Origin: Squalus acanthias
Taxonomy: Eukaryota
Direction of reading: 5' to 3'
DNA: 64,000 bases
NCBI GenBank assembly: GCA_030390025.1
Contig: CM059438.1
Location: forward strand, 78,244,001 to 78,308,000
Numbering within the stretch: position 1 is the stretch's first letter; every line of letters starts with the position of its first letter. This document shows positions 2,398-64,000 of the stretch, piece after piece. The position numbers and the translations under genes are program-made. The notes beneath the pieces were generated by a model that saw nothing but the letters and a program-made list of their open reading frames with translations, made no database searches and had not been told where the DNA came from.

Positions 2398-2445
2398 TGA
2401 ACTGCCACAACCACTCAACTTCCTCCTCTAAATAAAAATAATAAT

Positions 2446-3181: not shown

Positions 3182-3580
3182 AATGTTTGTATCTGTATAA
3201 TGCCTTATCACATCGAAACATCTCAAACTGCTTCACACAATGACTCACTGTTGAAGTGCAGTGATTGTTGTTATGTATGACTTGTTCTGTTGCTAGCAAG
3301 CCATTATGAAATACACCATACACTCTCCTGTAAATCTATTCTGGAATTATTATGCTTGTGTCGGGTATGCATTTATCCACTGTAATCATTGCAGGGGAAA
3401 GGAAGATCTAATTTCAGATGTGTTCCTACTGGGTTGTATTATGCACTGAAGAGATCTGATTGTTGTTGTCATGTAGCCGATACATTTAAATGCAATATTA
3501 TGCTTAGACATTATTGACATTTTTTGATAATGGTGATCATCTGGAGGGAGACAGTTTAAAAAAAAAAGTAAATAGAGTTT

Positions 3581-4567: not shown

Positions 4568-4953
4568 GTACCTGCGTGTTGCACCTGTCTGAAACAGTTA
4601 ACACTGCAGAAAGATAGTGAATAAAATTGTGCCAGACTTTTATTGCATATTGCTTTTTAAAATGGCTATCTTAGAATAACAATTTTGATTGGTTACTAGT
4701 ACTTAGCCTTTCCTTTAACCGCCTATTTCGTTTGCTGAACGTAATTTGATGTGCCCTTGATGGCCCCACTTCTTTTACCTTCGCTAGGTCATTGCATTTC
4801 ATTTGTTTACAGACTTTTGACAACCCTCCACTTGATTTGTTAACACAGATTGACTGTACCCTCAGTCCAGCCCATTCGATTTATTCAGTTTTATTTTAGA
4901 CACATCCAGGATGTGGGGACCTTATGGCATATGTGTGCTGCTCTTAATTTGGT

Positions 4954-5157
4954 CATGATGCGGAGATGCCGGTGTTGGACTGGGGTGGACAAAAGTGAGA
5001 AGTCGCACAACACCAGGTTATAGTCCAACAGTTTTATTTGAAATCACAAGCTTTCGGAGCTGCTGCCCCTTCATGACGAAGGGGCAGCAGCTCCGAAAGC
5101 TTGTGATTTCAAATAAAAATGTTGGACTATAACTTGGTGTTGTGCGACTTCTCACTT
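4954..5157 (-). mobile_element. PLE family 2, small fold-back insertion
   Basis: Palindrome 4993-5072/5078-5157 plus an unpaired tail 4955-4992. Direct repeat cttaatttggt at 4943-4953 and 5155-5165. Sequence matches the PLE tails at 45259-45380 and 56512-56575. Confidence 0.8.
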
Positions 5158-5289
5158 AATTTGGTGGATGTGTAGGTGGAATGCACAGCACTTCATAAAA
5201 TGCTTCCAGTAATGTAAAAGAAAAATGTTATAACTAAGAGGTCCAAGACAGAGTCACCCATTGGAGAATACAGACACGTGCTGAACTGC

Positions 5290-7989: not shown

Positions 7990-8156
7990 AACAAAACAGA
8001 AACTGCTGGAAATGCACACGGCCACATTAGCATCTGAAAGAGAAAGGCCAGTTTTTATTGGCTGTCTTACTTCTGGAAAGAGTTACAGCAGAACTGCTGA
8101 CCTATCTTTCTCTTTCAGATGCTGACAGACCTGCTGTCACTTTCCTGAGTTTTGTA
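7990..8156. mobile_element. Old inverted pair of PLE 3' tails
   Basis: agcatctgaaagagaaagg mirrored by ctttctctttcagatgct; resembles the family-1 tail; heavily decayed. Confidence 0.5.
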
Positions 8157-18669: not shown

Positions 18670-19560
18670 AAATTTCAATTGACCCTCAGCATCCACAGCC
18701 TTTTGGGCGAGAATTTCACTACCCTTTGTGTGAAAAAGTGCTTCCTGATTTTCCTCCTAAATGGCCTAGCTCTAATTTCAGGATTGGGCCCCATTTATTC
18801 TGGATTTCCTCCACCAGAGGAAATAGTTTCTTTGTATCTACCCTATCAAATTCCTTTATCATTTTAAACACCTCGATTAGATCACCCCTCAACCTTCTAA
18901 ACTCAAGGCGATACAAGCCAAGTTTATGCAAATTGTCCTCATAATTTAACCCTCTAAATCCTGGTATAATTCTGGTGGATCTGCACTGCACCCCGTCAAG
19001 GCCAATATATCCTTCCTGTGATGTGATGCCCAAAATTAAATGCAGTACTCTAGATGGGGTCTGACCAAGGCCCTGTCACTGAAGCATAATTTCTTCCCTT
19101 TTGTATTCCAGCCCCCTTGAGCTAAAGGCCAACATTCCATTAGTCTTTTTGATTACCTTGTTGTACCTGTGCACTAGCTTTTATTGATTTGTGTATATGG
19201 ACACCTAAGTCCTTTTGGTCCTCTACAGTTCCTAGTTTCTTGCCATTAAGAAGATATTCCAATTTGCCTTTCTTGGATCCAAAGTGAATGATCTCACACT
19301 TCCCCACATTATCTGCCACAGTTTTGCCCACTCACTTAATTTGTCTATGTCCCTTTGTAACTTCTTTCCCATCCACACAACTTACTGTGTCTCCTAACTT
19401 AAGTGTCATCTGTAAACTTAGATATCCAACTCTCTATTCCTTCATCCCAGTCACTGATATATATGGTGAGACACTGAGGCCCCAGTATAGATCCCTGGGG
19501 AACACCACTTGTCACATCCACCCATTGGAGTACATTCCCTTTATCACTACTCTATGTCTC
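18670..19560 (-). mobile_element. CR1 LINE, RT C-terminal fragment
   Basis: GKCEIIHFG..KDLGV..GLYRLEFRRLRGDLIEVFK, frameshifted. Confidence 0.88.
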
Positions 19561-23011: not shown

Positions 23012-24107
23012 GCACTCATCTGAGAAACAGCCAGTCACTGCGATGGGAACAAAGTAGGATTGGTATCCTGCAAGGGTGACGTCAAATGGGTCAAACAGCC
23101 TTCTTCATCCAAACCTATCAAGTGTTCTTGTGAACAGAGGGCTCAACTAAGCCACTGAGGTCTGAAGTGTAATAGCCCCAGAAGAGGACTTACCTTCTAA
23201 GATCTTGTGCTAGAGCAGCTAATAGGATTAAGTGACTCTGACACCTCTGCAGGGACATTATATCAGGCTGGGAGCAAGTACTCAGTAGGATGCCACAAAG
23301 ATTGGTGTTGGAACCCCTACAGTTTCTAATTTACAATTCAGACTTAAATCAGAAGCTCAGTGCAAACAGGGCAAATTAATAGATACCAAATCAAGAGCGA
23401 TGTTGTGTCCGAGGAAGCAGCTCAAGAACTACAAAATAAATTAGGCAAAATTTGGTGCTACATTTATCACCCATTCATAGTCAATGGGTATAAAGCCTAG
23501 ATTGTGATGCATAGGTAGGCTGATCAATGGCAGATGAAATTAAATACAGACCAGCGTCAAGTACTGAACATAGAAGAAACAAATAAGTGACATATGGGGT
23601 CCACCAATGGTCAAAATAGCTGAGGATGAAGTTGAAAGGCTCGATACTCAAGCACTGCAGAGCAACGGCCAACAAAGCAATGGAATACTTAACTATATGG
23701 CCATAGCAGTAGAGTCCAAGTCCAAGGAAGTTACGCTTAAACTGTATAGTGCTCTGTTCAGACCATATCTTGACTACCGTGTGCAGTTCACAACGGAAAC
23801 ATTCAAGCACATGGAGGCGATTCAGAGAAGAGCAACCAAACCGATCCTTTGTGTCAGGGGTCTAAGTTATGTGAAAAGACCAGAGAAATTTGGGCTTTTC
23901 AGTTTTGAAAGGAGACGACTGAAAGATGATCATATCGACCTATATAAGGTAGTAAAATGCATAGAAAAGCTACATGCAGAACACTGCTTCAAAGTGAACC
24001 ACGACAGTAGGGCAAAGAGAATCAGGTTCTTAGGAAGATCAGGAACAGGTGTAGGCCATTCAGCCCCTCGAGCCTGCTCCGCTGATCTGTACTTCAACTC
24101 CATTTAC

Positions 24108-24327
24108 AAAAGCAAAATACTGCGGACGTGGGAAAACTGAAATAAAAAACAGAAAATGCTGGAAATACTCAGCAGGTCAGGCAGCATCTGTGGAGAGAGA
24201 AACAGAGTCAACGTTACAACTCTAACCTTTTCCAGTTCTGACGAAAGCTCATCGACCTGAAACGTTAACTCTGTTTCTCAGATGCTGCCTGACCTGCTGA
24301 GTATTTCCAGCACTTGCTGTTTTTATC
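24108..24327. mobile_element. PLE family 1, inverted-tail insertion
   Basis: Minus arm 24108-24215 carries the true 3' end; plus arm 24216-24327. 14-bp TSD tcaactccatttac at 24094-24107 and 24328-24341. Confidence 0.82.
24234..24270 (+). ncRNA. Minimal type I hammerhead ribozyme motif (PLE-associated)
   Basis: agtt-CTGACGA-aagctcatcgacct-GAAA-cgtt-aact; one mismatch in stem II. Confidence 0.6.
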
Positions 24328-26527
24328 TCAACTCCATTTACCCGCCTTTGCTCCATATCTCCGGTTCAAATCAATAAAAGGCAAATTTAAGATTAATATC
24401 AGGAAGTTCTTCTTCACACACAGAATTTTTTTTCTTGTAGTCCCAGTTAGTTCCCCGCCCCCCTCACTGGCATTTTAATTTTAATCAGTAGCATGTTTTA
24501 AAGTACCGATATGTTATCTCTTTCAGCTCATCTAAGAGTGAAGGGTGTTTCCAGCTGGTTCCTGTAACCACAGTTGGCACACGCTCATCCCACTGGCACT
24601 GTTTAAAATTAAAGTTTGAACCCAAGTGCCAGTAAGCAGAGTACGCGCCAACCTTATGAGCAGCTGTTATAGTAACTAACTGGAAACTTTCACTCTTTGG
24701 CAGGTTGTGGGAGGCCGAACACCAGCACTTCAAACCATTCTGCTGATCAAACTTCAAATGCTGGCGAGCAGAGAAACAGGCAAGAAAAGTTGCACTGTTG
24801 GGCGAAATTGGCAGGATTGGTCGCAGGATTTTAGTGCCACAAACATGCCTTGCCTTCACTGCCACACCGGTACAGTGCACCTGCCCACCGAGCCTTCACC
24901 CATACACGATATCTATTGTGAATGCAAGAGAAATCCCAGCGATCTTGATTAAAGGGCCTGGGTTGTTTCAGAGTACAGGTGTTGGGCCCATACATCGTTG
25001 GTTTACCAGTGTATCTGTTTGCAATTTATTACTGATTGCATCATTAGGTTGCAGCAATTTGTTACAAATATTGAGAAATTCTCTTGAAATGCAATTTGGA
25101 AACAAATCAAGCAAATTCAGACAAGTCTGCTGTGAGCCAATCCGTGCACACTCCTGCATCTATTAACATCTGTACTGTACATTTGACTTTGTAGAGCAAT
25201 TATTTTAACCTTAAACATATGGTACGAACAGCACCACGCATGCAAAACTGACACTTGAAGAATGTTGTTCCTATTTTAAGTGAACTTTGTTTAAACATCG
25301 GCAGTTTGAGTTATACAAACTGGTTAATATGAAAATTGAACACTAAAAGGTAAACTTCAGCAAGCATAATTGGTTGACTTAATCCTTTAATTGGTAGTCG
25401 CACATTTCATGTACAGACGGTTTGGATGCGCACGAAAACTCCCTTATTATTGTCATACATAATCTGCCTCACGATGCCAACTTCCTCTTGTGGAAGAATG
25501 AAACTGTTTTATTCTGAACAATGACCCCTGAAGCCCAATTAACTCATGCTGTGTGTTCGTCATGGTCTGCTTGCGAGGAGCAGGAGTTTTAGTGTTTTTA
25601 GTAAAGGTGTGTCTGAGCCTCAAAGAAGCAAAATGAACATGTGGCAAGCAAATAGACAAATTTGCAAATCCACCGCCAGTTGATTAATTAGTACATAAAG
25701 AGACAGCCGATCCCATCTATTTTATAAAAGCCCAGAGTTCAAAATACTTATTCTTTTCTTTCTTTGGTTAGTAAGATTGAAAATTGATTGGTGGCAAAGA
25801 GTTAGTATTATACAATCCACAGGGTTCAGCAGCTTTGCAATCAGTTTCAGGGAAGTCCATTTAATTTTAGTTTTTTTACTTAATTCCGGTTTCTTATACC
25901 ACCTTCCTATTTATGTTTTCTTATCTATATATTTTTTACATTTTCAATCTTTTAGTGCTTGAGACTAGAGTATATTGCAAACTCGATTCCATCACTGTAC
26001 ACTGCAAACTTTAGTTCATTACTGTACATGCTAACTGTACTCCATTGCTGTACCTCAAACACTACTCCATCACTGTACACCATTAAGCTGATACAATAAA
26101 ACACATCACAACTGCTGCTTTACCGATGCTAATTCGATCTTCATTTGTAACTTTACACTTCATGCTGACTGTGTAATCTTATAATGTACTACTTAAGCAA
26201 TAATTAATTTACAGGACTACAGTGAGTTGTTATTAAGAACAGATAGCTTGATTGAAGGATGAATCCATAGATCGAATCTTTTAATAAAACTCTAGTCCTT
26301 AGTCATAAACTATTGTATCACCCCAAGTTCATGAAAGCAACCTGAGAATTCTTTGGCGTAACGGAATATTTAAATGGAAATTTTGTAGCCTTTCGTTTGT
26401 TTTTATGTTTTCCTTAGGATTTGTGGGATCTGAGGCAGATCTGTGGTGTTGGTGGCAGTTCGATAAAACCCGAAAGCGGCTCTTTGGAATCAGAGACAAC
26501 CTGACAGAACCAGTAAAGTTCAGTTAG

Positions 26528-32114: not shown

Positions 32115-34731
32115 ATTATATTTTCAAAGCCACACGTCCCAGCAACTTCATGAGCAGGTCTTTAATTATGGAGAAAAACAAGTATTGTCCCATTTTCATT
32201 CAGGGGATTCACCCACTTCGAATCAATAAAATATCTCACTTGTTTTCTGCAAGTGCATTTTATATATTGAATTTGTTACTTGCATTTACCAGGTGTCCTC
32301 GTTACCATAACACATAGTAGTACCTCGTAGCATTTTTCAAATGATCTCCGCCAGATTGAAAGCCTGTCAAGGTGAGGAAGCTGGGCCTGTATAAATAGGT
32401 GAAGCAGAGCAATCCCCCAAAAATACCATTTCTTATTTTTTGTTGATTTTCAGCAAGCTGAACATCACAACTGAGCCAATCCCAGCCTCAGCTGACAGGC
32501 ACATTCTAGCAGGGATCACTGGATAGAAATCAAGAGTGAGGACCTTTGCTAATTTCTGTTTCTCTCCCTTACCAGCCAAAGAGCACTGAGGCCAACTTCA
32601 GTGACCCAGTTGCTTCCTGTCTGCGAACAGCTAACCGGGCACAGACCAAGGACTGAGCCTGGGACCCTCATTACTTGCGCCGTTTCGTACCACACCACAT
32701 TAACCCACTAAGTCACTGGAGGAGTCATTTCCGCAATGCACCTTTATCGCTACACTATAACGCAAAACAGTAGCCTGGCTTAAAGGTTGTAAACTGCGTG
32801 CTTGAGCCTAACATGAGTTCAGTTAGAAATAGGATTGCTTCCGACAGGATTTAGCACATGTGCCTACTCTTATTGAAAGAACCGAATGACAATCTGGTTA
32901 AGTGTACGCAAGTACCACTGGCACACTAAACGTACAACATTGGATTCATATCAGAGTCCAATTTAAACATTCATCTCCAAAAAGCTATCTGAAGTTCAGT
33001 CGAAATATTTCTTCATTTTCATACACAATTATCATTTCCATGTTTGGGAAATTGAAAACTTAAGAGCATCAAGTGGAGATGCGATTTACTTTAGAATAGG
33101 GACTGTGCTGTAATGTATAGAAGCCACAGTATTTTCCTGTGTAAGCAAGCATTATGAATTCCAATATCATTGAACCATCTATCACTATTTGGCATGACAT
33201 CTGCCTGCAAATTTTAAAAAAATGGAAAATGATCAAGGGTAAAAACCTTTGTTTCTATACAGCATACATTGGTTTGTGTTCCTGCGATTGGGATCTATAT
33301 AAGAATAATTCTACACTCCCAGCAGGAAGATGCACTCACAGAGAACGAGGATCAGAGAACTGGGGCTCCAGTGCTGTGGGCCTATTTCTGATCCTCACTC
33401 CCTTTGAGTGTAGCTTCCCCACTAGGATTGTGGGATCGTGAAATTACCTCAAAAACGACTTGAGTTTCGCTTTCATGGTTTATGAGGCTGACTCAACTCC
33501 TCAGTATGTCACAGTCTTGTATCCCACTCGGAACTTGATATCATCTTGTATATTATGAGACAGGAAACACAAGCTCTGCCTGTTCCAATAGTCCAACTAA
33601 AACTTTAACATTTTGTGCTCCGTCTATGGCACACACCATATGAAAAGGATATTAAGATGATGCATTGGACACATTTGGATGCCAGATGTATAATGTTTGT
33701 CCAGATTGATTGAAACCTACTGCAGCAAAGAGAAGAGTACATTACGAATATTGAGGCACAATTAATGTAGGAAATAATTAGAACGGCGCGCAACTTAAAA
33801 TCTTAAAAAATAACAATTAGTGACACAAATATCGTCCTTCCGGGTGAAAACCGAATCAACTTGTCTTTGTTGCCTGTAACAGTTGAAATCACTCGCACAA
33901 TTTAAAAAATGTATTGAAATTTTCATGCTTTATTTTTATGTTCCTTTTCCCATCTGGTTTCCATCTGTTCAAGGTTCCATTGAAGCAAAAAAAAAATGAA
34001 TCGTTTTGACAATTCCTTACTGGGGTCGGTTTTACATTGGAGCCCTGTGTCCCTTTTTGAGCCCATTTTCCACTGTTCAAAAAAAACCCACTATGAATGC
34101 CTGGTACTTACACAAACCTAACCGAAAACAGATAACAACCACCAGAAATAAAGTGCATCAAGTATTGGCATCAAACACCTGTCTTATTGCTGCAAGTCTT
34201 TTGACAAGTCTGGGCCAGAGTTTTACTGAGGGCCCACTTTAACAGAAAGACATTGGGCAGTATATTCCGATGCGCTGAAAACAGGTATTTCCGATCTGTC
34301 AAGAATGCTCTTGACAAGGGCCCTCGAGAAGGGCCTCTGAGGGGGGGAGAGTTCCACTTTCTGCAGAACCTCCGCCCGCAGAAAACCCTTAGAAATCCTA
34401 CACCTGCGTAAGGCCTGCTTTTACCAGCATAAGAGTTGAAAAAAGTTAAAAAAAAAAATTTCCACTCATTTATAATTTAAAAATACTTTTAAAAAAGGTA
34501 AGTTTCATTTTAGCCCTGTAAAAAACTTTAATTATTTTTTCAAAAAAATTAAGTTTTTGTTTAAAACATTTAATTTATTGTAATTTTAACTCTTTTAAAA
34601 ACGTGATGGTTTTTTAAAAATGTATTTACTGTTTTACTGTGTTTTTGGGGTGATCTCCATTCATATATTTGACAGCAGAAAACGCTGGAAAAACTCAGCA
34701 GGCCAGGCAGCATCCGTGGAGAGAGAAAGAG

Positions 34732-34768
34732 AGTTGACGTTTCAGGTCGATGACCTTTCATCAGAACT
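34732..34768 (-). ncRNA. Minimal hammerhead ribozyme (left arm)
   Basis: Mirror copy of 38338-38374. Confidence 0.75.
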
Positions 34769-35044
34769 GGGAAGAGCTGGAAATCAAATAGATTTAAGGC
34801 CAGGGTAAAGCTGGGAAAAGGGGGAGGGGATAAAGGAACAAAGGAGGAGATGAAGAGACATTAAGAGACATTAAGAGATATGCAAGGCTAGAGGTGGTGT
34901 TAATGTGACAGATTAAGGCTGAATGAAGTGTGAAATCTACTGGCAGAATGAAGGACAGCTGCCAGCTTCTAGGAGGAAAAAAAAGGTGGGGGGGACAAAT
35001 AAAAGGGTGGATAAAATAAAATATAAATGTGATTGGAGCTGAGG

Positions 35045-36550
35045 TTATGATCTAAAATTGTTGAACTCGATATTGAGTCCAGAGGGCTGTAGCGTGCCTA
35101 AACGAAAGATGAGGTGCTGTTCCTCGAGCTTACGCTGAGCTTCCGTGGAACAGTGTATTAGGCCGAGGACGGTGAGGTCAGAGTGGGAGTGAAGCGGTGA
35201 ATTAAAGTGACAGGCCACCGGGAGCTCGGGGTCCCCCTTACGGACTGAACGGAGGTGTTCCGCAAAGCGGTCACCCAATCTGCGTTTGGTCTCCCCAATG
35301 TAGAGGAGTCCACATCGTGAGCAGCGAATACAGTATACTAAATTGCAGGAAGTACAAGTAAATCGCTGTTTCACCTGGAAGGGGTGTTTGGGGCCCTGGA
35401 CAGTGGGAAGAGGGGAGGTATAAGGGCATGTGTTGCATCTCCTGCGCGTGCACGGGAAGGTGCCGGGCGAAGGGGAAGGGGTGCTGGGGGTGGTAGAGGA
35501 GTGGACTAGGGTGTCGCGGAGGGAGCGGTCCCTGCGGAATGCTGAAAGGGGAGGTGAGGGGAAGATGTGTTTGGTGGTGGGATCACGCTGGAGGTGGCGG
35601 AAATGGCGGAGGATGATCCGTTGAATGTGGAGGCTGGTGGGGTGAAAGGTGAGGACAAGGGGAACCCTATCGTGGTTCCGGGAGGGAGGGGTAGGGGTGA
35701 GGGCAGATGTGCGGGAGATAGAACGGACACGGTCGAGGGCCGTGTCGACCACGGTAGAGGGGAATCCTCGGTTGAGGAAAAAGGAAGACATGTCGGAAGC
35801 ACTGGTATGGAAGGTGGCATCATCAGAGCAGATGCGGCGGAGACGGAGAAACTGGGAGAATGGAATAGAGTCCTTACAGGAGGCGGGGTGGGAGGAAGTG
35901 TAGTCCAGGTAGCTGTGGGAGTCGGTGGGCTTGTAGTGAATGTTAGTCAATAACCTATCCCCAGAGATGGAGATGGAGAAGTCGAGGAAGGGAAGAGAAG
36001 AGTCGGAGATGGACCATGTGAAGGTGAGGGAAGGGTGGAAATTGGAAGCATAGTGAATGAAATGTTCTAGTTCAGGGCGAGAGCAGGAGACGGCACCGAT
36101 ACAGTCATCAATGTACCGGAAAAAGAGGTGAGGGAGGGGACCCGAGTAGGACTGGAACAAAGAGTGTTCCACATATCCCACGAAAAGGCAGGCATAGCTA
36201 GGACCCATGCGGGTACCCATAGCAACACCTTTAATTTGGAGGAAATGGGTAGAGTCAAAGGAGAAGTTGTTCAATGTGAGAACAAGTTCAGCCAGGCGGA
36301 GGAGGGTGGTGGTGGATGGGGACTGGTTGGGCCTCTGTTCAAGGAAGAAGCGGAGCGCCCTCAGGCCATCCTGGTGGGGAATGGAGGTGTAGAGGGATTG
36401 TACGTCCATAGTGAAGAGGAGACGGTTGGGGCCGGGAAACTGGAAACTGTTAAAATGGCGGAGGGCATCGGAAGAGTCGCGGATGTAGGTGGGAAGAGAC
36501 TGGACAAGGGGAGAAAAAATAGAGTCGAGATAGGAAGAGATAAGTTCCGT
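35045..36550 (-). CDS. PLE RT plus GIY-YIG endonuclease, 5'-truncated (inverted copy)
   Basis: Translation identical to the plus-strand copy. Confidence 0.92.
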   Translation of the reverse strand, partial: TELISSYLDSIFSPLVQSLPTYIRDSSDALRHFNSFQFPGPNRLLFTMDVQSLYTSIPHQDGLRALRFFLEQRPNQSPSTTTLLRLAELVLTLNNFSFDSTHFLQIKGVAMGTRMGPSYACLFVGYVEHSLFQSYSGPLPHLFFRYIDDCIGAVSCSRPELEHFIHYASNFHPSLTFTWSISDSSLPFLDFSISISGDRLLTNIHYKPTDSHSYLDYTSSHPASCKDSIPFSQFLRLRRICSDDATFHTSASDMSSFFLNRGFPSTVVDTALDRVRSISRTSALTPTPPSRNHDRVPLVLTFHPTSLHIQRIILRHFRHLQRDPTTKHIFPSPPLSAFRRDRSLRDTLVHSSTTPSTPSPSPGTFPCTRRRCNTCPYTSPLPTVQGPKHPFQVKQRFTCTSCNLVYCIRCSRCGLLYIGETKRRLGDRFAEHLRSVRKGDPELPVACHFNSPLHSHSDLTVLGLIHCSTEAQRKLEEQHLIFRLGTLQPSGLNIEFNNFRS

Positions 36551-36555
36551 GGGCC

Positions 36556-38061
36556 ACGGAACTTATCTCTTCCTATCTCGACTCTATTTTTTCTCCCCTT
36601 GTCCAGTCTCTTCCCACCTACATCCGCGACTCTTCCGATGCCCTCCGCCATTTTAACAGTTTCCAGTTTCCCGGCCCCAACCGTCTCCTCTTCACTATGG
36701 ACGTACAATCCCTCTACACCTCCATTCCCCACCAGGATGGCCTGAGGGCGCTCCGCTTCTTCCTTGAACAGAGGCCCAACCAGTCCCCATCCACCACCAC
36801 CCTCCTCCGCCTGGCTGAACTTGTTCTCACATTGAACAACTTCTCCTTTGACTCTACCCATTTCCTCCAAATTAAAGGTGTTGCTATGGGTACCCGCATG
36901 GGTCCTAGCTATGCCTGCCTTTTCGTGGGATATGTGGAACACTCTTTGTTCCAGTCCTACTCGGGTCCCCTCCCTCACCTCTTTTTCCGGTACATTGATG
37001 ACTGTATCGGTGCCGTCTCCTGCTCTCGCCCTGAACTAGAACATTTCATTCACTATGCTTCCAATTTCCACCCTTCCCTCACCTTCACATGGTCCATCTC
37101 CGACTCTTCTCTTCCCTTCCTCGACTTCTCCATCTCCATCTCTGGGGATAGGTTATTGACTAACATTCACTACAAGCCCACCGACTCCCACAGCTACCTG
37201 GACTACACTTCCTCCCACCCCGCCTCCTGTAAGGACTCTATTCCATTCTCCCAGTTTCTCCGTCTCCGCCGCATCTGCTCTGATGATGCCACCTTCCATA
37301 CCAGTGCTTCCGACATGTCTTCCTTTTTCCTCAACCGAGGATTCCCCTCTACCGTGGTCGACACGGCCCTCGACCGTGTCCGTTCTATCTCCCGCACATC
37401 TGCCCTCACCCCTACCCCTCCCTCCCGGAACCACGATAGGGTTCCCCTTGTCCTCACCTTTCACCCCACCAGCCTCCACATTCAACGGATCATCCTCCGC
37501 CATTTCCGCCACCTCCAGCGTGATCCCACCACCAAACACATCTTCCCCTCACCTCCCCTTTCAGCATTCCGCAGGGACCGCTCCCTCCGCGACACCCTAG
37601 TCCACTCCTCTACCACCCCCAGCACCCCTTCCCCTTCGCCCGGCACCTTCCCGTGCACGCGCAGGAGATGCAACACATGCCCTTATACCTCCCCTCTTCC
37701 CACTGTCCAGGGCCCCAAACACCCCTTCCAGGTGAAACAGCGATTTACTTGTACTTCCTGCAATTTAGTATACTGTATTCGCTGCTCACGATGTGGACTC
37801 CTCTACATTGGGGAGACCAAACGCAGATTGGGTGACCGCTTTGCGGAACACCTCCGTTCAGTCCGTAAGGGGGACCCCGAGCTCCCGGTGGCCTGTCACT
37901 TTAATTCACCGCTTCACTCCCACTCTGACCTCACCGTCCTCGGCCTAATACACTGTTCCACGGAAGCTCAGCGTAAGCTCGAGGAACAGCACCTCATCTT
38001 TCGTTTAGGCACGCTACAGCCCTCTGGACTCAATATCGAGTTCAACAATTTTAGATCATAA
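36556..38061 (+). CDS. PLE RT plus GIY-YIG endonuclease, 5'-truncated
   Basis: Frame is open from the palindrome centre (TELISSYLD...), about 501 codons. Motifs: MDVQSLYTSIP, GVAMGTRMGPSYA, RYIDD, CTRRRCNTC Cys linker, LVYCIRCSRCGLLYIGET, GLN. Confidence 0.93.
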   Translation, partial: TELISSYLDSIFSPLVQSLPTYIRDSSDALRHFNSFQFPGPNRLLFTMDVQSLYTSIPHQDGLRALRFFLEQRPNQSPSTTTLLRLAELVLTLNNFSFDSTHFLQIKGVAMGTRMGPSYACLFVGYVEHSLFQSYSGPLPHLFFRYIDDCIGAVSCSRPELEHFIHYASNFHPSLTFTWSISDSSLPFLDFSISISGDRLLTNIHYKPTDSHSYLDYTSSHPASCKDSIPFSQFLRLRRICSDDATFHTSASDMSSFFLNRGFPSTVVDTALDRVRSISRTSALTPTPPSRNHDRVPLVLTFHPTSLHIQRIILRHFRHLQRDPTTKHIFPSPPLSAFRRDRSLRDTLVHSSTTPSTPSPSPGTFPCTRRRCNTCPYTSPLPTVQGPKHPFQVKQRFTCTSCNLVYCIRCSRCGLLYIGETKRRLGDRFAEHLRSVRKGDPELPVACHFNSPLHSHSDLTVLGLIHCSTEAQRKLEEQHLIFRLGTLQPSGLNIEFNNFRS

Positions 38062-38337
38062 CCTCAGCTCCAATCACATTTATATTTTATTTTATCCACC
38101 CTTTTATTTGTCCCCCCCACCTTTTTTTTCCTCCTAGAAGCTGGCAGCTGTCCTTCATTCTGCCAGTAGATTTCACACTTCATTCAGCCTTAATCTGTCA
38201 CATTAACACCACCTCTAGCCTTGCATATCTCTTAATGTCTCTTAATGTCTCTTCATCTCCTCCTTTGTTCCTTTATCCCCTCCCCCTTTTCCCAGCTTTA
38301 CCCTGGCCTTAAATCTATTTGATTTCCAGCTCTTCCC

Positions 38338-38374
38338 AGTTCTGATGAAAGGTCATCGACCTGAAACGTCAACT
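38338..38374 (+). ncRNA. Minimal type I hammerhead ribozyme (right arm)
   Basis: agtt-CTGATGA-a-aggtc atc gacct-GAAA-cGTC-aact; palindromic ACGT stem III; predicted cleavage after 38370. Confidence 0.78.
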
Positions 38375-39856
38375 CTCTTTCTCTCTCCACGGATGCTGCC
38401 TGGCCTGCTGAGTTTTTCCAGCGTTTTCTGTTGTTATTTCGGATTTCCAGCATCTGCAGTATTTTGCTATCATATATTTGACAGGTCTATCTGTCAAAAG
38501 TATGAAGGGAGATTCCCTTCTCCTATTGGCTGGCCTGGCCCACGTGATCCCAGGGACGCTTGCGAACTGCCTGCGCCCCTGGGATACGTGGGCCCTGCGC
38601 ATTTCGACTGTGGAGAGGCCCAGGAGCGGAAGTGTCCGGACCTCGGGAGCCCTCGGGTAAGTTCGTAGATTTTTTTCCGATAGGAGGCATCCGCACGCAG
38701 GAAGCCTCCTATTGGAAATTACGGGCCATAATATCAGTTATTGATGGTATGATTAACTCTAGATAAACACATGCCTGATCCAATCATAGAATGCCAATGG
38801 ACCGAATCATTCCCATTCACTTCCACTGCATAAAATTCTGAACCAGGCATTACATTTCAATGATGATCCAACCAGAAAATGTCCCCCCGCCCTCCTCCCG
38901 CAGTAATTCCTGCTTTTGTCTCCTTGTATACTGATCATTGTCAGTCCAGCACATGTTACTTACCTTTCACACAATAATAACTTCTTGCAAAGATCGCACT
39001 TTGCATGTAATAGTTTTCATCTATGTTCCATTGCCGATTGAGTAATTAGTGTGAGCTCGGGTTTTAAGATGATAAATTAGAACATTTTTTCATGAGCGCA
39101 CTAAGAGATCCTGCCTCAAGCATGAAATTTCCTGGCAAACTAGCTGTGCATTAATCAGAATTCAGTTGTATGCTGACACTCACCAGATATCAGATACCTG
39201 CCATTCACAGGTCCTTGCACTTAGTGAGTTCAGTCGGCAGTGTTTATAGAGGGACGATCGCCATTAGCGTCTCACTTTAGAATCAAACAATTACAAACGA
39301 TTCTAAGAAGCGAAATGTACAGGACCATATAGTGCTGCTATTTCTTTTAATAATAATGTTTAATAATATCTAATCTAGTAATGCGTCTGATTTTGCTGCA
39401 AAGTGCTCCTGAGGTTATTGGAGTGTTTGGGTGAGCAGAATGCTGTATTTGGAAGGGTCTTGTTTCCCCATAGAAGAACAAGCCTGGCAAGGCTCTTTTT
39501 TTCTTCAAACTTATATTAAGAAATGTGTTGCTATACAGAATTAAAGAGACATTCCTGGCAAACTTTTCAGCGCTGATGTATTTTGCATCAAATTACAAAC
39601 ATTTTCTATCATTTAACAGAAATAGAATTATTTTCTGTCATTCTCTGCAACTAAATTATTTTAAAGCGGAATGGGTTAAATATGTAGCCATGTCAAATAT
39701 TTTCTCAGGCCTTTGTCTCCAATGAGAGCTTTTACTCGAAAAACAAGCAGTTCAACAGAAGAGCTTCCTTTTGTGAAGGCAAAGAATGAGTCCAAAATGT
39801 TCTCTGAACAAACTGGAGCAATACTACAGTCTTCAAGTAAAAATACAAAATGCCAG

Positions 39857-41244: not shown

Positions 41245-41986
41245 GGCCCAGAAATTGATCTCGCTCTGTTCCCGCGGGGGTAAGCCTTCCCCGCGATGTC
41301 TCACCTCGCTTATGCTTTTTCTGATCCAGCTCGCACGAAATTGATGTTCCAGACATCAGCTGTGCTGGGCTTGCGTATCCCAGCGGCGTAGTTAATTCGT
41401 GCGAGCTGTGGGATCACGTGACTCAGTTAGAGCCAATGGCAGCACACCATCTTCCATTCATAAGTCTCACAGCATGGCTGTGAGACTTATGAATCTTACA
41501 CCCCCCCAAAATAACAGCTAAACCTCAATTAAATTAAAAAAAACCCATCACAATAATAAAATAAGTATAGTTAATTAAATTAACCATTTTAAATAAAAAA
41601 TTAAATTTTTGAAAAAATTTAAAATCTTTTAAAAAGTTATAAAAATAAACTTACCTGTCTTTAAAGTCTATAAAAAAGATATACCTGTAAAAAAAAATTC
41701 AAAAAAATACTTAATTCACTACTTACCTTCTTAAAAGCGGGTCTTACTCCTCCTTTTTACATTTCCAAAATCTTCCCTACTTACCTGCGCGTCCAAAGCA
41801 TGAAGTGCACAGCGTGCGCGCAGCCTGTAGCGCGCACGCGATGCAGCCAGGCCCCGCCCCCTTTTCGGAAGAGCAATTGCCGGTTTTCAGCGCATGCGCA
41901 GGGCATGCAGAAAACCGGCAATTGGAGTGGGAATACGCGAGAGTATGCAGTGCGTACTCTCGCGTCCCGGGATCAATTTTCGGCCC
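41245..41986 (+). mobile_element. MITE family B (relative of family A)
   Basis: TIR ggcccagaaattgatc / gatcaattttcggccc. Same layout as family A: ggatcacgtg, agccaat, central hairpin, AT core, ccggttttcagcgcatgc hairpin. Confidence 0.8.
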
Positions 41987-43376
41987 ATTCTCTCTTGGAA
42001 ACTTAAGGAATTTTCCAAGCCTGAGGGGAAATAAACACAAAGGGCTTGTGAGGGCAGTAGCTCACAAAGCTTCTGGGATTGATGTTGATGCAAAGTTGAT
42101 CAGGGTTGATCACAGCTAGAGGTGAAGGGGCTTCTGCTCCCCTAGAAGGAGAGAAGGCTGTTTTTCAGCCCCCAGGCAGACCCCAGGAGCTGCAGCATTT
42201 AGAATTACATTAGGGACCACAATACTTAGGAGAAGATTTGAAAGCACACACTTAGGGCTAGATTAGGACCCATAGCACTTAGAGGCAGATTAGAGACCAC
42301 AGACATAGGGTAGTTTGGGATCTATAGGTTTGAGAAGGTGCATTAGAACTACAGGGTTACAGAGGTCTGCATACACACATTTTTTATTCTGGATAATCAA
42401 GAGATATGTTCCTGAATTAATGGTTAGATCCTGGGCATAATTGAGAAGCAGATTGGACAGAGACCATTGCATTCAATATAAGACAAATGTCTAAGGGCAG
42501 CAGCTTAAGAGAACAAACCAGCAATCAATTGCTCGCAGACCTTTTTAAGGAGCCAAATGTTGCCCTTTCTCATCCTCCTTTTGTACTGGTGCCTGCTGAT
42601 CATTAGTCAACTGCGTGCTGCTGCTCCTATTAGTGACAATGATGTGCAGCATTGGCCACCTCTTCAGGGGTATGCCAGAGGCAGCTGCCAGAGCCTATCT
42701 AAGCACGTCAGAGTTTTGCTCGATCTGCACCCTGGTCCAGCCATGGACCTCACATATAGCTCAGCCCTGCTGCGCAAGTTGCACAGAGGCATCATGACTT
42801 ACAGTTGCAACATGAAGTCCAGGTCTCCCGGCAACCCTCCCCTTGGAAGAAATTGGTAAAGCCAAACTCGGGCAGGATCTGTGATTCCTAGGCAGTGCGC
42901 ATCAACATGAATAATTCTATCACAAATCACACACCATCTAGAAAATAAGGGGGTGGAAGCCCTTTCAATTTAGGTATGGCATCACTGGATGTTGAAGTGC
43001 AAGTGCAATTAATTATTCCTTAAACCTAAGGGGAACTTGCAAATTTGTAGACACCCTGGTGCCTTTGGGATTACAGGTGTCCCATTGCTAAAGTTGATGT
43101 ACTGGTGGCCACAGCTCAACGGCAAATCAGTCATTGACTGTGAGGACCAAATAGCATTTGACCCTGAAGTCTACAGTTGGGGCATGGAAGCCACTAGTGA
43201 CATAAAATTGAGACATTTCATTACATTAACTAAACTAACACAAGGAGGGCAGTGCTGACTGAAGACTGTCCCTTCAGCTCATCGTTCTGGATATGATACA
43301 GGAGGTGGTACGACCTCCTTTCACACACTGCTCCTCCATTAGGGACAAGTACCTACTTGTTGATCTGTACACCTTG

Positions 43377-43453
43377 CTGTTGGACTATAACCTGGTGTTG
43401 TGCGACTTCTCACATTTGTCCACCCCAGTCCAACACCGGCATCTCCACATCAT
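43377..43453 (+). mobile_element. PLE family 2, extreme 3' end
   Basis: ctgttggactataacctgg...catctccacatcat; TSD caccttgctg at 43370-43379 and 43454-43463. Confidence 0.8.
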
Positions 43454-43802
43454 CACCTTGCTGACGGAATAGATGGTTCAGGTTGTCTTGAGTGTTCCTT
43501 AGTCTTTGGTCTCACTCTGTCTCTTACCTTTGGAACTCACTCCCTAAATATCTCAGCCTTGCAAAGGCTCAACCCCTTGGCATTCCTTATCAAGGTTGAA
43601 GGGGCAGGAGATTCAGAAGTGGCAGGTGAAAATGAAGGAAAAGGGAATCTAGGTGCAAGCATGATTCTGCAGGCAAGTGACAGAACAGACAAAGAATTGG
43701 ACCCCGATTTGATGGCCGCTGAAGTGGAGGTGGTGCTACATGAGATGATTACGTGGAGAATTTTCCTCTGTTCCACTCCACGGCATCATTCCTTTTAATT
43801 CG

Positions 43803-44128: not shown

Positions 44129-45164
44129 ATAAACATTAATTTAAAAAAAACTCAGCATGTTTTCAAATAGGTGGAGCCACAGCTGACCATTACTGTTACT
44201 GGACTTGCCTACAGAAGATGACAAAGCATTGCATCTGGCTGACTAATGACCCAAACTCAGTGAAGACGGATTTGCACAGTCATTGCCAGGCAGGTGTGCA
44301 GGTATGGTTGGTGGCATTTTAGCGGTTGGGCCAATCAGGGTGTGCTGGCCGCTGATCACTCTGACGAGTATGTTTACATGCAATGCCACCGAAATCATGG
44401 CGTCCTGTGCTCGAGGTTCTTCTGGGGAAGCGTCCAACTTTTGTGGTTGGTCCTGCAGTCACATATATTAATAACGCCATCAGGGCTTCCGCCCCAGCTT
44501 GCTTTGGAAATAGGAGCATCCACATGCACTCTTCATCTGCTCAAACGAGGTTATGTTCACTGTTACCTGTAGGTACAGGTGAGCAGGTACATGTGCAGAG
44601 GCACTGAGCACTTCCCCTGCAGTCTGACCGGATCTAGCATCCCTTAATTGGTGTTCCTTTTCCTTCTCAGGCAGGGGGATTCCCTTTAGGAAACCCACTG
44701 ATGCCAAAAATAAGGCTGGGACAAAAAAAATAAATGAGAACAATTGGTGCAAAGTCTCATGAGAACCCAAGTACCAGCAGAACAAAAACCCCAGTAAAAA
44801 ATGGTTGAGCTGTATTTATTGTCACAGTTCTTTGTCCTTTCCACACTGTTGCATATAATTACCATTACCTAACGATCCTGGATGGCAATTTCACATGGGC
44901 AGGATTATGGATGCCTGAACACTGGGAAATAACCGCAGGTCATCCAGCGAGCACTTTCCACCCTTAGGAAATTACACTGAGTTTTCCAGTCAGTGCTTGC
45001 AAATCGGGTAATTTGATAGGAAAATACCCACCAATAATTCCAATGCAGGTCAGGAGCAATGGCGGGTGCCAATAGAAATTTATAACACCCAACAGAAAAC
45101 AGCGCCACTCAGTGGTGCGAGCCATTATAACAAGCCTTCAGTCGGCATTACTCATAGAAACTAT

Positions 45165-45380
45165 GTGTGATAAAGGGCAGTTAGAAAGATTAACTGTAGT
45201 CGTCTGGCATTGTTCTCTGACTATTTATGCTGTGCCCATATGTATTTCTTCACTTCCCCTGACGAAGGAGCAGCGCTCCGAAAGCTTGTGATTTCAAATA
45301 AAACTGTTGGACTATAACCTGGTGTTGTGCGACTTCTCACTTTTGTCCACCCCAGTCCAACACCGGCATCTCCGCATCAT
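45165..45380 (+). mobile_element. PLE family 2, 3' fragment with hammerhead
   Basis: CTGACGA-a-ggagc agc gctcc-GAAA-gctt at 45259-45287; TSD catagaaactat at 45153-45164 and 45381-45392. Confidence 0.8.
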
Positions 45381-45652
45381 CATAGAAACTATAGGAGCAG
45401 GAGGAGGCCATTCAGCCCCTCGAGCCTTTTCTGCCATTCAATGAGATCATGGCTGATCTGTATCTTAACTCCATTTACCCGCCTTGGTTCCGTAACCCTG
45501 GCCGAACAAAAATCCATCAATCTCAGTTTTAAAAATTTCAATTGACCTCGCCTCAGCAGCTCGTTGGGGAGAGAATTCCAGATCTCCACTACCCTTTGTG
45601 TGAATTTTAAGGTTATGCTCCCTTGTTCTGGACTCTCCCGCCAGAGGAAATA
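45381..45652 (-). mobile_element. CR1 3' end
   Basis: FTQRVVEIWNSLP followed by the 3' UTR. Confidence 0.82.
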
Positions 45653-47336: not shown

Positions 47337-47939
47337 GATTTACTTGTACTTCTTGCAATTTAGTATACTGTATTCACTGCTCACGATGCGGTCTCCTCTA
47401 CACTGGGGAGACCAAACGCAGATTGGGTGACCGCTTTGCGGAACACCTCCATTCAGTCCGTAAGGGTGACCCTGAGCTTCCGGTCGCTTATCACTTTAAT
47501 TCTCCGCACCACTCCCACTCTGACCTCTCTGTCCTCGGCCTCTTGCACTGTTCCAATGAAGCTCAATGTAAGCTCGAGGAACAGCACCTCATCTTTCGAT
47601 TAGGCACTTTACAACCTTCTGGACTCAACACTGAGTTCAACAATTTCAGACTATAACCCCTGCCCCTATTTTTTCAGGTGGCAGCTGTTGATTATTCTGC
47701 CATCCCCATTTGCAACATTTAATCTCTCCTGCCTTCCACCCTATCACAGTGACCGTCCCTTCTGTTCCTTCCTCCCCTCCCCCCTCTTTCCCTGCCTCTG
47801 CACCTACTTAAAACCTGTTACATCTCTAACTTTTTCCAGTTCTGACGAAGGGTCATCGACCTGAAACGTTAACTCTGTTTCTCTCTCCACGGATGCTGCC
47901 TGGCCTGCTGAGTGTTTCCAGCATTTTCTGTTGTTATTT
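47337..47939 (+). mobile_element. PLE family 1 fragment (GIY-YIG domain, 3' UTR, hammerhead)
   Basis: FTCTSCNLVYCIHCSRCGLLYTGETKRRLGDRFAEH...GLNTEFNNFR; flanked by aggattta/aggattta. Confidence 0.92.
47838..47874 (+). ncRNA. Minimal hammerhead ribozyme motif
   Basis: agtt-CTGACGA-agggtcatcgacct-GAAA-cgtt-aact. Confidence 0.68.
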
Positions 47940-47984
47940 AGGATTTAAATGCACTTTTTTGAACTATCAGGCATCAGCATCATT

Positions 47985-55647: not shown

Positions 55648-56058
55648 TATACGATTGTTCGTGAGAATGAGGACACATCAAATGTAGACTCAATAAAATT
55701 GTGATGCTCCATTAAAATGTTCTGCATATCTGAAGGATTATGTGATCAACTAAATAAAGTTAGACTGCATGATATAATGATTTGAAATATTTTATGATGT
55801 ATCCAATCTCAAGCCATGTGTCAGTATTGTCTTCATAGGAGTGTGTGCTGTTGCTGTGGAGCCTCATCTGTATGCAGTGTTGGCTCCCAAAATGACCCTA
55901 CATTATTATCATTCAGTTTAGTAATGGGATTAACGTCAATAAATCTGTTAATGCGTGCTAGAGTTAAACTAGTCTCAGCATTATGGTTCATGGTTACAGT
56001 TTCTTCTAGAAGTTTAGTGTTCAAACCGTGCACATGTACACGTGCAGTCTAACTTCTT

Positions 56059-56575
56059 AATGAGAAGTCGCACAACACCAGGTTATAGTCCAACAGATTT
56101 ATTTAATTTTACAAGCTTTCGGAGCGGTTCGCTCCTTCCTCAGGTAGGGTAGCAGTGAGAGAATCTCCCAGAATTCACAATATACACACAGAAAAAATCT
56201 ATTCAAATCTTTCCCTACATCAAAGACACACTAAGAGCACAGCCAAGACAATGAGATGTGTCCCAGGGGGTCCAACGTGTCAAAACACCTGCTGGCTGCA
56301 TATCCTGTCAATTTGTGTTGGTTCTTGTGTTAGTCTTTTTAAAAAAAAACACCTGGAAAGACCGGCCATGATGTCAAGTCACGTTCTGTATTGTGACATG
56401 AACCCGATATCGCGATTGAGGCCATCCTCATGAGTGCGGAACTTGGCTATCAGTTTCTGCTCTATGATTTTGCGCTGTCGTGTATCCCGAAGGCCGCCTT
56501 GGAGAACGCTTACCTGGTGTTGTGCGACTTCTCATTTTTGTCCACCCCAGTCCAACGCCGGCATCTCCACATCAT
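56059..56575. mobile_element. PLE family 2, inverted insertion
   Basis: Minus arm 56059-56511 encodes VSVLQGGLRDTRQRKIIEQKLIAKFRTHEDGLNRDIGFMSQY and a hammerhead. Plus arm 56512-56575 carries the 3' end. TSD taacttcttaatga at 56050-56063 and 56575-56588. Confidence 0.85.
56110..56146 (-). ncRNA. Minimal hammerhead ribozyme motif
   Basis: tac-CTGAGGA-a-ggagcg aac cgctcc-GAAA-gctt-gta. Confidence 0.65.
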
Positions 56576-56984
56576 AACTTCTTAATGATCTCAAAGTCTA
56601 TTGTCTCAATTGACAATATAGGAAGTGGTGTCAGTACAACTCCTGCAGACATTTCTTGCATTGGTGAAAGAGGTTGTTACCCACTCTCTTATTTTAGAGG
56701 TGGATTCATGGACGAGTCCAGCAGAGAAAATCAAATACTAAAACAAGAGTAAAATAAACTCTTTTTAAAAATGTGATTTATTAAATTCACCACAAGTTCT
56801 GTTGATGAAGGCGATATTAGTAAAATGTAAGTGGTGGGATATCACATAATAATTAACAGAGAGAGCTCAGAAAGATGTAAGCTGGCAGCATACAGGGCAG
56901 TGGGTTTGGGCTTCCCAATGTTACAAGTTAAATTAGTTTATGCTGTCTCATCTCGTCCAAGTCATCCGTTATAGTAATATATCT

Positions 56985-57429: not shown

Positions 57430-58123
57430 CATAAGAACATAAGAACAAGGAGCAGGAGTAGGCCATTTGGCCCTTCGAGCCTGCTCCGCCATTCAATAAG
57501 ATCATGGCTGATCTTCTGCCTCGACTCCACTTTTCCACCCTATCCCCATATCCCTTGATTCCCTTAATATCCAAAAATCTATCAATCTCTGTCAATCTCT
57601 GTCTTGAATATACTCAATGACTGAGCATCCATAGCCCTCTGGGGTAGAGATTTCCAAAGATTCACAACCTTTGGAGTGAAGAAATATCTCCTCATCTCAG
57701 TCCTAAATGGCTGACCCTTTATTCTGAGATTGTGACCCCTAGTTCTAGACTACCAAGCCAGGGGAAACATCCTCCAGCATCTACTCTGTCAAGCCCCTTA
57801 AAAATTTTGTATGTTTCAATGAGATCACCTCTCATTCTTCTAAACTCTAGGGAATATAGGCCTAGTCTACTCAATCTCTCCTCACAGGACAATCCCCCCA
57901 TCCCAGGAATCAGTCTGGTGCACCTACATTGCACTCCCTCTAAGGCAAGTATATCCTTCCTTAGGTAAGCAGACCAAAACTGTACACAGTACTCCAGGTG
58001 TGGTCTCACTAAGGCCCTATATAATTGCAGTAAGACTTCTTTACACTTATATTCCAATCCCTTTGTAATAAAGGCTAATATACCATTTGCTTTCCTAGTT
58101 GCTTGCTGAACCTGCATGTTAAC
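57430..58123 (-). mobile_element. CR1 LINE 3' part
   Basis: LYRALVRPHLEYCVQFW...; tail repeat present. Confidence 0.92.
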
Positions 58124-63942: not shown

Positions 63943-64000
63943 ATAAAAAGAGAAAATGCTGGAAATACTCAGCAGGTCAGGCAGCATCTGTGGGGAGAGA
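63943..64000 (-). mobile_element. PLE family 1 tail running off the window
   Basis: agaaaatgctggaaatactcagcaggtcaggcagcatctgtgg, as at 24151-24193. Confidence 0.75.

Follow-up and report, generated by a model that had tools for sequence, protein, structure and literature searches.

We analysed a window of 64,000 nucleotides of Squalus acanthias DNA, in which a Penelope-like element (PLE) is present as two head-to-head copies inserted in a host repeat. The features of the locus, with positions numbered from the first letter of the window, are listed below.

34270 to 34660, no strand assigned: host repeat, portion to the left of the insertion
34661 to 34675, plus strand: left copy of the 15-bp target-site duplication (TSD), which doubles as the left arm of a conserved host-repeat hairpin
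34676 to 36553, minus strand: left, tail-less arm with the central base, a 5'-truncated PLE comprising an RT to GIY-YIG open reading frame and the 3' UTR/pseudo-LTR (pLTR), presumably primed from the top-strand nick
34736 to 34764, minus strand: left copy of a minimal hammerhead ribozyme motif, found by pattern scan and mirroring the right copy
35045 to 36553, minus strand: left ORF remnant, uninterrupted, starting with PTEL, 502 element-derived codons and a stop
36553, no strand: single, unpaired central base, completing a conserved Pro codon in the sense of the left arm only
36554 to 38430, plus strand: right arm, the exact mirror of 34676-36552, probably the complement of a cDNA primed from the bottom-strand nick
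36554 to 38061, plus strand: right ORF remnant, with RT (MDV, MGTRMG and YIDD motifs), a CX4CXXC linker and a GIY-YIG endonuclease with a CCHH motif
38062 to 38430, plus strand: 3' UTR/pLTR region
38342 to 38370, plus strand: right copy of the minimal hammerhead ribozyme motif, with core, stem II hairpin and a short palindromic stem III, found by pattern and fold
38431 to 38469, plus strand: 39-nt tail, confined to the right arm
38470 to 38484, plus strand: right copy of the TSD, an exact 15-mer
38485 to 38732, no strand assigned: host repeat, portion to the right of the insertion
2441 to 3090 and 178 to 840, minus strand: uninterrupted paralogues of the host repeat

Base-by-base mirroring about 36553 gave 0 mismatches in the 1,877 pairs formed by 34676-36552 and 36554-38430, and the symmetry was first broken at 34675/38431. 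A repeat search reported an arm of 1,881 nt because it crosses this mismatch into three more matching bases; the next longest perfect arm in the 64-kb window measured 41 bp. A first-pass annotation of this DNA had described two head-to-head arms about a 1-nt spacer, with the last 39 nt on the right arm only and a 15-bp TSD around the whole unit, and had proposed that the arms be aligned and their mismatches counted. This layout was reproduced in every particular, and the count is the zero given above. Among random pairs of 40/60-nt windows, an exact shared 15-mer occurred in 24 of 200,000; the TSD is 73% AT. When the flanks were fused at one TSD, they were colinear through the junction with both paralogues of the host repeat, at 82% over 666 columns for one and 77% over 679 for the other, these two paralogous copies, uninterrupted at the insertion point, serving as a proxy for the empty site. 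Three of the last four bases of the TSD are identical to the start of the tail, as expected of a microhomology join. Hairpin targeting as a general rule for PLEs was rejected, because only the focal site among six rebuilt targets folds strongly, and 3.8% of random windows are as stable as the focal target.

The insertion also appears to be young. Besides the identity of the arms, the reading frame is uninterrupted, and the ORF shows two conservative deviations over 116 highly conserved columns. The CpG observed/expected ratio is 0.69 in the arm versus 0.42 in the remaining window, and a comparison of CpG decay with the older copy near 47 kb was 6:1 toward that copy. Since the TSD is perfect and the frame intact and CpG-rich, little time can have passed since insertion. 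Within the assembly sequence, from which it is known here, the locus was confirmed as what appears to be a real and recent product of a single event. This accords with the first-pass annotation, which had taken it for one recent PLE insertion and had seen in the TSD and the one-sided tail an argument against a read fold-back; we uphold both views.

Counted from the first Met, each arm encodes the same 454-aa translation that had been noted earlier. This Met is an internal residue of the RT, in the MDV motif, and is no start codon. Read from stop to stop, each frame has 505 aa, and the two differ at the central codon, which gives Pro on the left and Ala on the right. As previously annotated, the turn lies within the RT domain, and we place it just past the conserved GRPIVSACSC stretch. 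At its N-terminal side the remnant lacks ~250-400 residues, among them those of the DKG and LPKIHK motifs: in 21 long homologues (750 aa or more) that cover the turn, 249-405 residues precede it, and DKG-type N-terminal conserved motifs are seen in long homologues. Truncation of both arms downstream of the DKG motif and the partial-tandem pLTR-ORF-pLTR unit explains their absence from the locus, and the full-length ORF with an upstream pLTR that marks an autonomous copy is lacking. Two Pfam profiles matched slightly below their gathering cut-offs, RVT_1 (E 2e-5) and GIY-YIG (E 3e-4), and a PDB sequence search gave 0 matches at E<=1. Homologues numbered 1,019 at E<=1e-20 among 8,000 candidates, the closest named ones being shark and ray proteins of 65-70% identity.

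The endonuclease carries the CCHH motif, with two Cys between the GIY and YIG equivalents and two His downstream. The CX4CXXC linker occupies residues 368-376, and the linker pattern was also present in 108 of the 110 homologues that reach the nuclease motif. A CX2-5CxxC linker between RT and EN separates Neptune/Nematis from Penelope/Poseidon (PMC8557442), the latter having no Zn-finger-like linker at this position. The focal element has such a linker and shares with Neptune/Nematis the C-terminal GIY-YIG domain with CCHH (PMC8557442), whereas its target is not a (TA)n microsatellite. The element is a young, 5'-truncated, non-autonomous EN+ PLE and, judged by its linker, probably of the Neptune/Nematis type.

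The two-armed layout with a one-sided tail is routine in this window. Six TSD-flanked PLE insertions were considered, leaving out a copy at 47337-47969, for which neither a TSD nor an inverted partner was found, a copy at 63943-64000 clipped by the window edge, and a weak remnant at 8102-8153. Four of the six (near 5 kb, 24 kb and 56 kb, and the focal insertion) are head-to-head with a tail on one arm, and the remaining two (43 kb and 45 kb) are single tailed arms. The four two-armed insertions span two PLE families, A and B. The 5-kb insertion (4943-5165) is an older, slightly diverged palindrome with a 1-nt centre, a 39-nt tail, an 11-bp TSD and 3 arm mismatches. At 24 kb, the tail-less arm holds ~49 nt missing from the tailed arm; at 56 kb, the tailed arm measures 64 nt and the tail-less arm, of ~450 nt, reaches ~390 nt beyond it and encodes the C-terminus of the endonuclease (profile E 9e-4; 2,133 six-frame segments). 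Since sequence found only in the tail-less arm stands opposite a tail on the other arm in both of these insertions, neither arm can have been copied from the other.

Within each family the outer ends cluster at two sites ~40 nt apart, one for tail-less and one for tailed arms. In family B, all four tailed ends fall at reference positions 45380-45382 and both tail-less ends at 45339-45342. The tail-less site is inexact in family A, because the focal end (38430) lies ~7-9 nt further in than those of the older copies at 24 kb and 64 kb. The tail-less arm had the greater 5' reach in all four two-armed insertions (by ~1, 2, 49 and 390 nt), a polarity noticed post hoc in a small sample, with a chance of 1 in 16 had the direction been named beforehand, and with two of the four offsets depending on 1-2 bases. 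Overlaps at the inner junctions were 0, 1, 3 and 2 nt, and no extra mutation is needed to account for them except one assumed CpG-type change at 5 kb.

Together, the focal and the three smaller insertions suggest that the PLE is copied simultaneously into the two strands of the cut DNA. We judge the chances to be about even that double target-primed reverse transcription of a Neptune/Nematis-type PLE produced the focal locus as one recent, 5'-truncated insertion. With a lizard Poseidon PLE in vitro, both strands were cleaved and extended, two RT start sites delimited the tail, and a dimer was predicted (PMC11167929). If we extend this two-start, two-strand scheme to the focal element, a GIY-YIG endonuclease, presumably supplied by an intact copy elsewhere, would nick the two strands 15 nt apart, and each 3'-OH would prime copying of the PLE RNA. 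The top-strand nick would use the inner start and generate the tail-less arm, and the bottom-strand nick would use an outer start 39 nt further 3' and generate the tailed arm. Both cDNAs would be ~1.88 kb long and their ends would differ by no more than 1 nt; the simplest cause would be a common broken end or stall point on a single RNA, and the RT from the inner start would be ahead of the other. The cDNA 3' ends could then be joined by a template jump or by end-joining with an overlap of 0-3 nt; template jumps of the R2 RT need little or no pairing (PMC8857657). Each joined cDNA would finally template the second strand of its partner, giving a palindrome between TSDs. The product is unable to encode a full RT and would therefore be a dead-on-arrival copy.

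The two recurring outer ends per family match the RT start sites that bracket the tail in vitro (PMC11167929), and this counts against a lone snap-back. Among the points against double priming, the in vitro data come from the Poseidon clade, in an account that, in the sections available to us, does not describe a finished two-armed product (PMC11167929), and Pen2a of rotifers has the reverse polarity, its inverted pLTR without a tail being the shorter (PMC3846280). More tentatively, two-armed PLE insertions may record a dimeric enzyme, with two RTs in file on one RNA, one for each nick and start site; the offset of the inner ends would then mark the stop of the trailing RT, and a perfect palindrome would form when the leader was caught. 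If this is true, one mechanism that can be checked from assemblies alone would account for the tail as well as for the inverted copy and the TSD, and in the germ line of cartilaginous fish PLEs would routinely give rise to spacerless palindromes of kilobase size.

The central turn bears on whether one arm templated the other. Cys-Pro-Thr is conserved here, each residue being found in 76 of the 77 homologues that cover the site; the native DNA upstream of the turn was reconstructed from these protein homologues, the window containing no full-length copy. On this reconstruction the templated central base would belong to the tail-less arm, the opposite of what a self-copying tailed cDNA predicts. 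A self-copying cDNA had been proposed in the first-pass annotation, its 3' end snapping back during one integration. Spelled out for this locus, a single tailed cDNA primed at the right nick would snap back, copy itself, halt 39 nt before the end of the copy and be attached to the left end of the target. One event would then account for the mirrored arms, their identity and the TSD, and the three matching bases at the TSD end and tail start could represent microhomology. However, as the tail-less arm and not the tailed one has the templated central base, this route requires either two base substitutions or an inversion of the centre at a later time. It cannot give rise to the 24-kb and 56-kb insertions, and it leaves tail-less ends ~40 nt from the tailed ends, in two families, unexplained. 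Given the unequal arms, the recurrent ends and the central base, one cDNA snapping back to copy itself is not supported as stated, and we regard it as improbable. Somewhat unlikely is a combination of two primings with a snap-back, in which the tail-less 1.88-kb cDNA folds on a native micro-inverted repeat and copies itself, and its sense strand anneals to a short, tailed second cDNA that closes the right end. Exact symmetry and identity would then arise without two long cDNAs halting together, the 56-kb insertion shows a short (64 nt) tailed cDNA in vivo, and self-priming was earlier proposed for palindromic PLE junctions (PMC3846280). The Cys codon before Pro would imply, at the turn on the tail-less strand, a 3-nt loop closed by a 2-bp stem, which a snap-back could exploit at the price of one base change at the focal centre. 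Nevertheless, no stable terminal hairpin was predicted at the cDNA end in its present form (MFE 0), and the symmetric 5-kb insertion demands a 1-nt loop or non-templated bases; hairpin loops normally require several unpaired bases (PMC7999016).

The palindrome could also owe its form to assembly, either because the assembler extended a PLE with short inverted ends via a fold-back read or because polishing equalised the arms of a real palindrome. Palindromic chimeras and base-calling trouble at inverted duplications have been documented (PMC6218980, PMC7229812), and collapse would yield 100% arm identity. We think an artefact, in whole or in part, hardly likely, as the two flanks differ and form colinear halves of the same host repeat around a single TSD, the tail is one-sided, the older palindrome at 4943-5165 has the same geometry and is much too short to be such an artefact, and youth is evidenced independently of arm identity. 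Gene conversion between the arms of palindromes is a known phenomenon, and an asymmetric two-armed insertion may have been symmetrised, or its arms held identical, by this process or by hairpin-mediated repair. Processing of long palindromes usually introduces central asymmetry rather than removing it, which counts against a change after insertion. Although long palindromes are recombinogenic (PMC7999016), the perfect TSD and the intact, CpG-rich frame leave little time, the 5-kb insertion shares the 1-nt centre, and we consider such a history very improbable. The four natural products, with junctions readable to the base, speak for a pair of primed cDNAs rather than a single cDNA that copied itself.

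That an inverted layout was already known for PLEs, as had been pointed out, is supported by published cases. Penelope of Drosophila virilis, Pen2a of Adineta vaga and the Naiads likewise have a head-to-head inverted 5'-truncated copy, a junction palindrome, a 30-40-nt tail at one end and an enclosing TSD (PMC3846280, PMC8557442, PMC2377424); nothing on inverted copies appears in the available text of PMC12910113. Compared with these EN+ PLE cases, the focal arms are equal and identical, the turn is in the RT and there is neither a full-length ORF nor a partial tandem; the junction palindromes named for rotifers are 15-38 bp, in contrast to arms of 1,877 bp here. Since the layout is known, the focal locus by itself is an unusually long and clean example. 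Twin priming of LINE-1 shares a second cDNA primed from the second strand, a TSD and short microhomology at the inner junction (PMC11702581), but there the second RT primes internally beside the end of the first cDNA, so that the segments scarcely overlap. [quoted passage not shown] Fold-back inversions and hairpin-capped breaks also have a perfect or near-perfect palindromic centre, but these duplicate chromosomal flanks, whereas the focal locus mirrors element sequence only and its flanks are intact target. For the origin of PLE inverted copies and tails, self-priming was proposed in 2013 (PMC3846280), and in vitro work in 2024 described both-strand priming with two start sites, leaving later steps unvalidated (PMC11167929). 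The reading of two primed cDNAs yields a clear genome-wide prediction, and the 3.75-kb palindrome, if confirmed by reads, would be a natural substrate for following the lifetime of spacerless palindromes in a vertebrate germ line.

The putative hammerhead motif in the 3' UTR, identified with the minimal definition of PMC4209133, is predicted to cut after 38370. A scan of 34000-39200 gave no Rfam match to the hammerhead model, and the fold z-score of the motif was unremarkable (-0.5). The 22 Rfam matches in this interval were all under gathering scores, almost all of them miRNA and snoRNA models on the hairpin centre, and were discarded as spurious. Poseidon PAc of Anolis carolinensis, which belongs to a different clade, shares with the focal element a hammerhead motif followed by a short region with two tail-bracketing boundaries, and an AT-rich target. 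A 26-nt spacing from a start-like ATG to the ribozyme cut is PAc-like in appearance and was set aside because the ATG is placed differently within the core. When pLTR/tail RNA was folded, neither of the two end sites showed a significant stem-loop (z -0.1 to -0.9). A tail related to the focal 39-nt tail terminates the older copy at 24108.

Comparison of the window with its mirror image about base 36553 revealed 1,877 consecutive complementary pairs without a mismatch, and the symmetry of the arms was first broken at 34675/38431. The runner-up perfect inverted arm anywhere in the 64 kb was only 41 bp. A 39-nt tail (38431-38469) had no counterpart on the left, and an exact 15-mer at 34661-34675 and 38470-38484 bracketed the whole unit as a TSD (an exact 15-mer was shared by chance in 24 of 200,000 random window pairs). 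As an empty-site control inside the window, the flanks joined at one TSD aligned straight across to two copies of a host repeat that lack the interruption (3090-2441, 82% over 666 columns; 840-178, 77% over 679 columns). The focal palindrome, a Penelope-like element (PLE), is real, and the first-pass annotation had correctly described its mirrored arms with a 1-nt spacer, its right-arm tail and its 15-bp TSD. The 454-aa translation reported for both arms was correct in length from the first Met, but this Met lies inside the RT, each frame runs 505 codons from stop to stop, and the arms differ at the central codon, where the unpaired base yields a conserved Pro in the tail-less (left) arm only. 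Both arms carry a tandem duplication of 10 bp in the 3' UTR (34853-34878 and 38228-38253), which therefore predates or accompanies insertion.

The focal ORF matched RVT_1 and GIY-YIG. Of 8,000 candidates that were scored, 1,019 were homologous at E<=1e-20, and the top-ranking ones with a name came from whale shark, ray, bamboo shark and zebra shark (65-70% identity), which makes a cartilaginous fish the probable host. Motif inspection detected YIDD, a CX4CXXC linker and the CCHH endonuclease motif, while DKG and LPKIHK were missing. Cys, Pro and Thr at the turn were each found in 76 of the 77 homologues, out of 120, whose alignment covers the site, and 21 of them, with lengths of at least 750 aa, extend 249-405 residues upstream of the turn, in agreement with its earlier placement inside the RT domain. 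Both arms are therefore 5'-truncated within RT and the copy non-autonomous. The linker marks the element as a putative Neptune/Nematis member and not Penelope/Poseidon, a distinction drawn in PMC8557442; in preprint 10.64898/2026.07.22.740005, Neptune and Poseidon were the only clades found among the sampled vertebrates. A candidate minimal hammerhead motif, as defined in PMC4209133, lies at 38342-38370, with no Rfam detection there. An ATG within its core starts a frame of 42 codons that runs through the tail (38345-38470, +); in a tandem unit, the element's ORF may begin here, since pLTRs of other PLEs include first codons. The predicted C-terminal read-through of zebra shark protein P0011 ends in residues resembling a hammerhead core in translation, a hint that another shark shares this 3' layout.

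A window-wide search for related ends identified six PLE insertions with exact TSDs, belonging to the focal family or to a second family, B, whose reference copy is at 45k.

PLE insertions other than the focal element, and further features of the window
4943-5165 (5k): family B, TSD 11, ~82-bp arms about single base 5075, 3 mismatches
24094-24341 (24k): older copy of the focal family, TSD 14, tail on left arm, right arm tail-less
43370-43463 (43k): family B, TSD 10, single tailed arm
45152-45392 (45k): family B, TSD 13, single tailed arm
56050-56588 (56k): family B, TSD 14, tail-less arm ~450 nt, tailed arm 64 nt
47337-47969: left out of the count; focal family, endonuclease/3' UTR copy, 88% identical, no TSD detected on searching
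63943-64000: left out of the count; focal family, tail-less end at window edge
8102-8153: left out of the count; focal family, weak remnant
178-943, 2441-3193, 34270-38732 (interrupted), 41361-41965: host repeat family, ~650-750 bp
59520-61322 (-): stop-free frame, 600 codons
6546-6977, 18719-19075, 23574-24140, 57719-58123: shorter pieces related to the 600-codon frame

Four of the six were two-armed, with the tail confined to one arm in all four, and this layout is routine in the window; no inverted partner was found for 43k or 45k. The 5k insertion, with a 39-nt tail on its left arm, has the geometry of the focal element. At 24k, which lies inside the host repeat with flanks colinear with its copies, the tail-less arm was ~49 nt longer at the 5' end and the junction overlap was 3 nt. 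The 24k junction falls in the hammerhead's short palindrome. The 56k junction overlap was 2 nt, and its tail-less arm matched the endonuclease C-terminus on the minus strand (E 9e-4, 110-homologue profile), the sole match outside the focal family among 2,133 stop-free segments.

At both 24k and 56k, each arm carries sequence missing from its partner, and two templated syntheses are therefore needed. Outer ends recurred: in family B, tailed ends fell at reference 45380-45382 (4/4) and tail-less ends at 45339-45342 (2/2), while tail-less ends in the focal family were less exact (mutual spread ~7-9 nt). The tail-less arm reached further 5' in all four two-armed insertions, by ~390, 49, 2 and 1 nt. 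Read from the TSD ends, the left arm (top strand) and right arm (bottom strand) are the products expected of priming at each nick. Frangieh et al. (PMC11167929) describe a lizard PLE protein, predicted to be a dimer, that cleaves and extends both target strands, with two reverse transcription start sites bracketing the tail. The structure, TSD, end positions and junction bases are direct observations; from the asymmetric neighbours, recurring outer ends, tail-less polarity, arm orientation and this both-strand priming, we infer two primed cDNAs. Each target nick would prime its own cDNA from its own start site, both would halt at the same end or stall point of a shared RNA, and the two would join with 0-3 nt overlap, as by a template-jumping RT, a capacity supported in PMC8857657. 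However, there are only four two-armed insertions, the polarity was noticed post hoc, two of the four offsets are 1-2 bases, the 5k offset assumes one CpG-type change, and polarity differs in rotifer Pen2a, where the tail-less inverted pLTR is the shorter one.

The first-pass annotation had proposed that the 3' end of a single cDNA snapped back and copied itself during one integration. A left end closed by a microhomology join suits this, as three of the four final TSD bases are identical to the tail start, and self-priming is put forward for rotifer Penelope junctions in PMC3846280. The proposal is partly supported, but it conflicts with the two syntheses needed at 24k and 56k, the recurring outer ends, the longer tail-less arm in 4/4 and the central Pro. 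Alternatively, the tail-less strand could have snapped back, with one later base change and a tail from a short second cDNA as at 56k; a Cys codon upstream of the turn, as in the homologues, would imply a 2-bp stem and 3-nt loop on that strand, but no hairpin is predicted for the present cDNA end. A mis-assembled extension, or arm identity produced by polishing, is possible (PMC6218980 and PMC7229812), although the short, diverged 5k palindrome shows that the same geometry arises in vivo. The set of four junctions opens a mechanistic test of inverted-arm formation in PLEs.

The focal element is an unusually long example of an already known PLE layout. Copies inverted head to head, with a palindrome at the junction, a 30-40-nt tail at one end and TSDs, are described for rotifer Penelope (PMC3846280), for Naiads and PLEs generally (PMC8557442) and for Drosophila, where the large inverted repeats vary in size (PMC2377424). 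L1 twin priming also uses a second nick, but its segments are adjacent and not duplicated (PMC11702581). The literature searched, mostly open-access and without the older PLE papers, contained neither a two-primed-cDNA account of PLE inverted arms nor a report of a kilobase spacerless PLE palindrome in a shark, which is weak evidence of novelty.

The focal insertion is recent, as first proposed, on evidence besides arm identity that holds without correct arm resolution. The TSD is exact and the frame unbroken; of 116 columns with high conservation, the protein deviates at only 2, in each case conservatively (1.7% against a homologue median of 2.7%); CpG o/e is 0.69 compared to 0.42 in the remaining window; and CpG decay relative to the older 47.3 kb copy runs 6:1 toward that copy. 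Spacerless long palindromes are recombinogenic according to PMC7999016, consistent with a recent origin.

Short hairpins with arms of 10-18 bp are frequent within the host repeat, and no ORF was seen in it. The focal TSD coincides with the left arm of a 15-18-bp hairpin that is conserved in this repeat, and a hairpin of that kind was present at only one of the six PLE target sites. The 600-codon frame presumably resembles a CR1/L2-type LINE reverse transcriptase.
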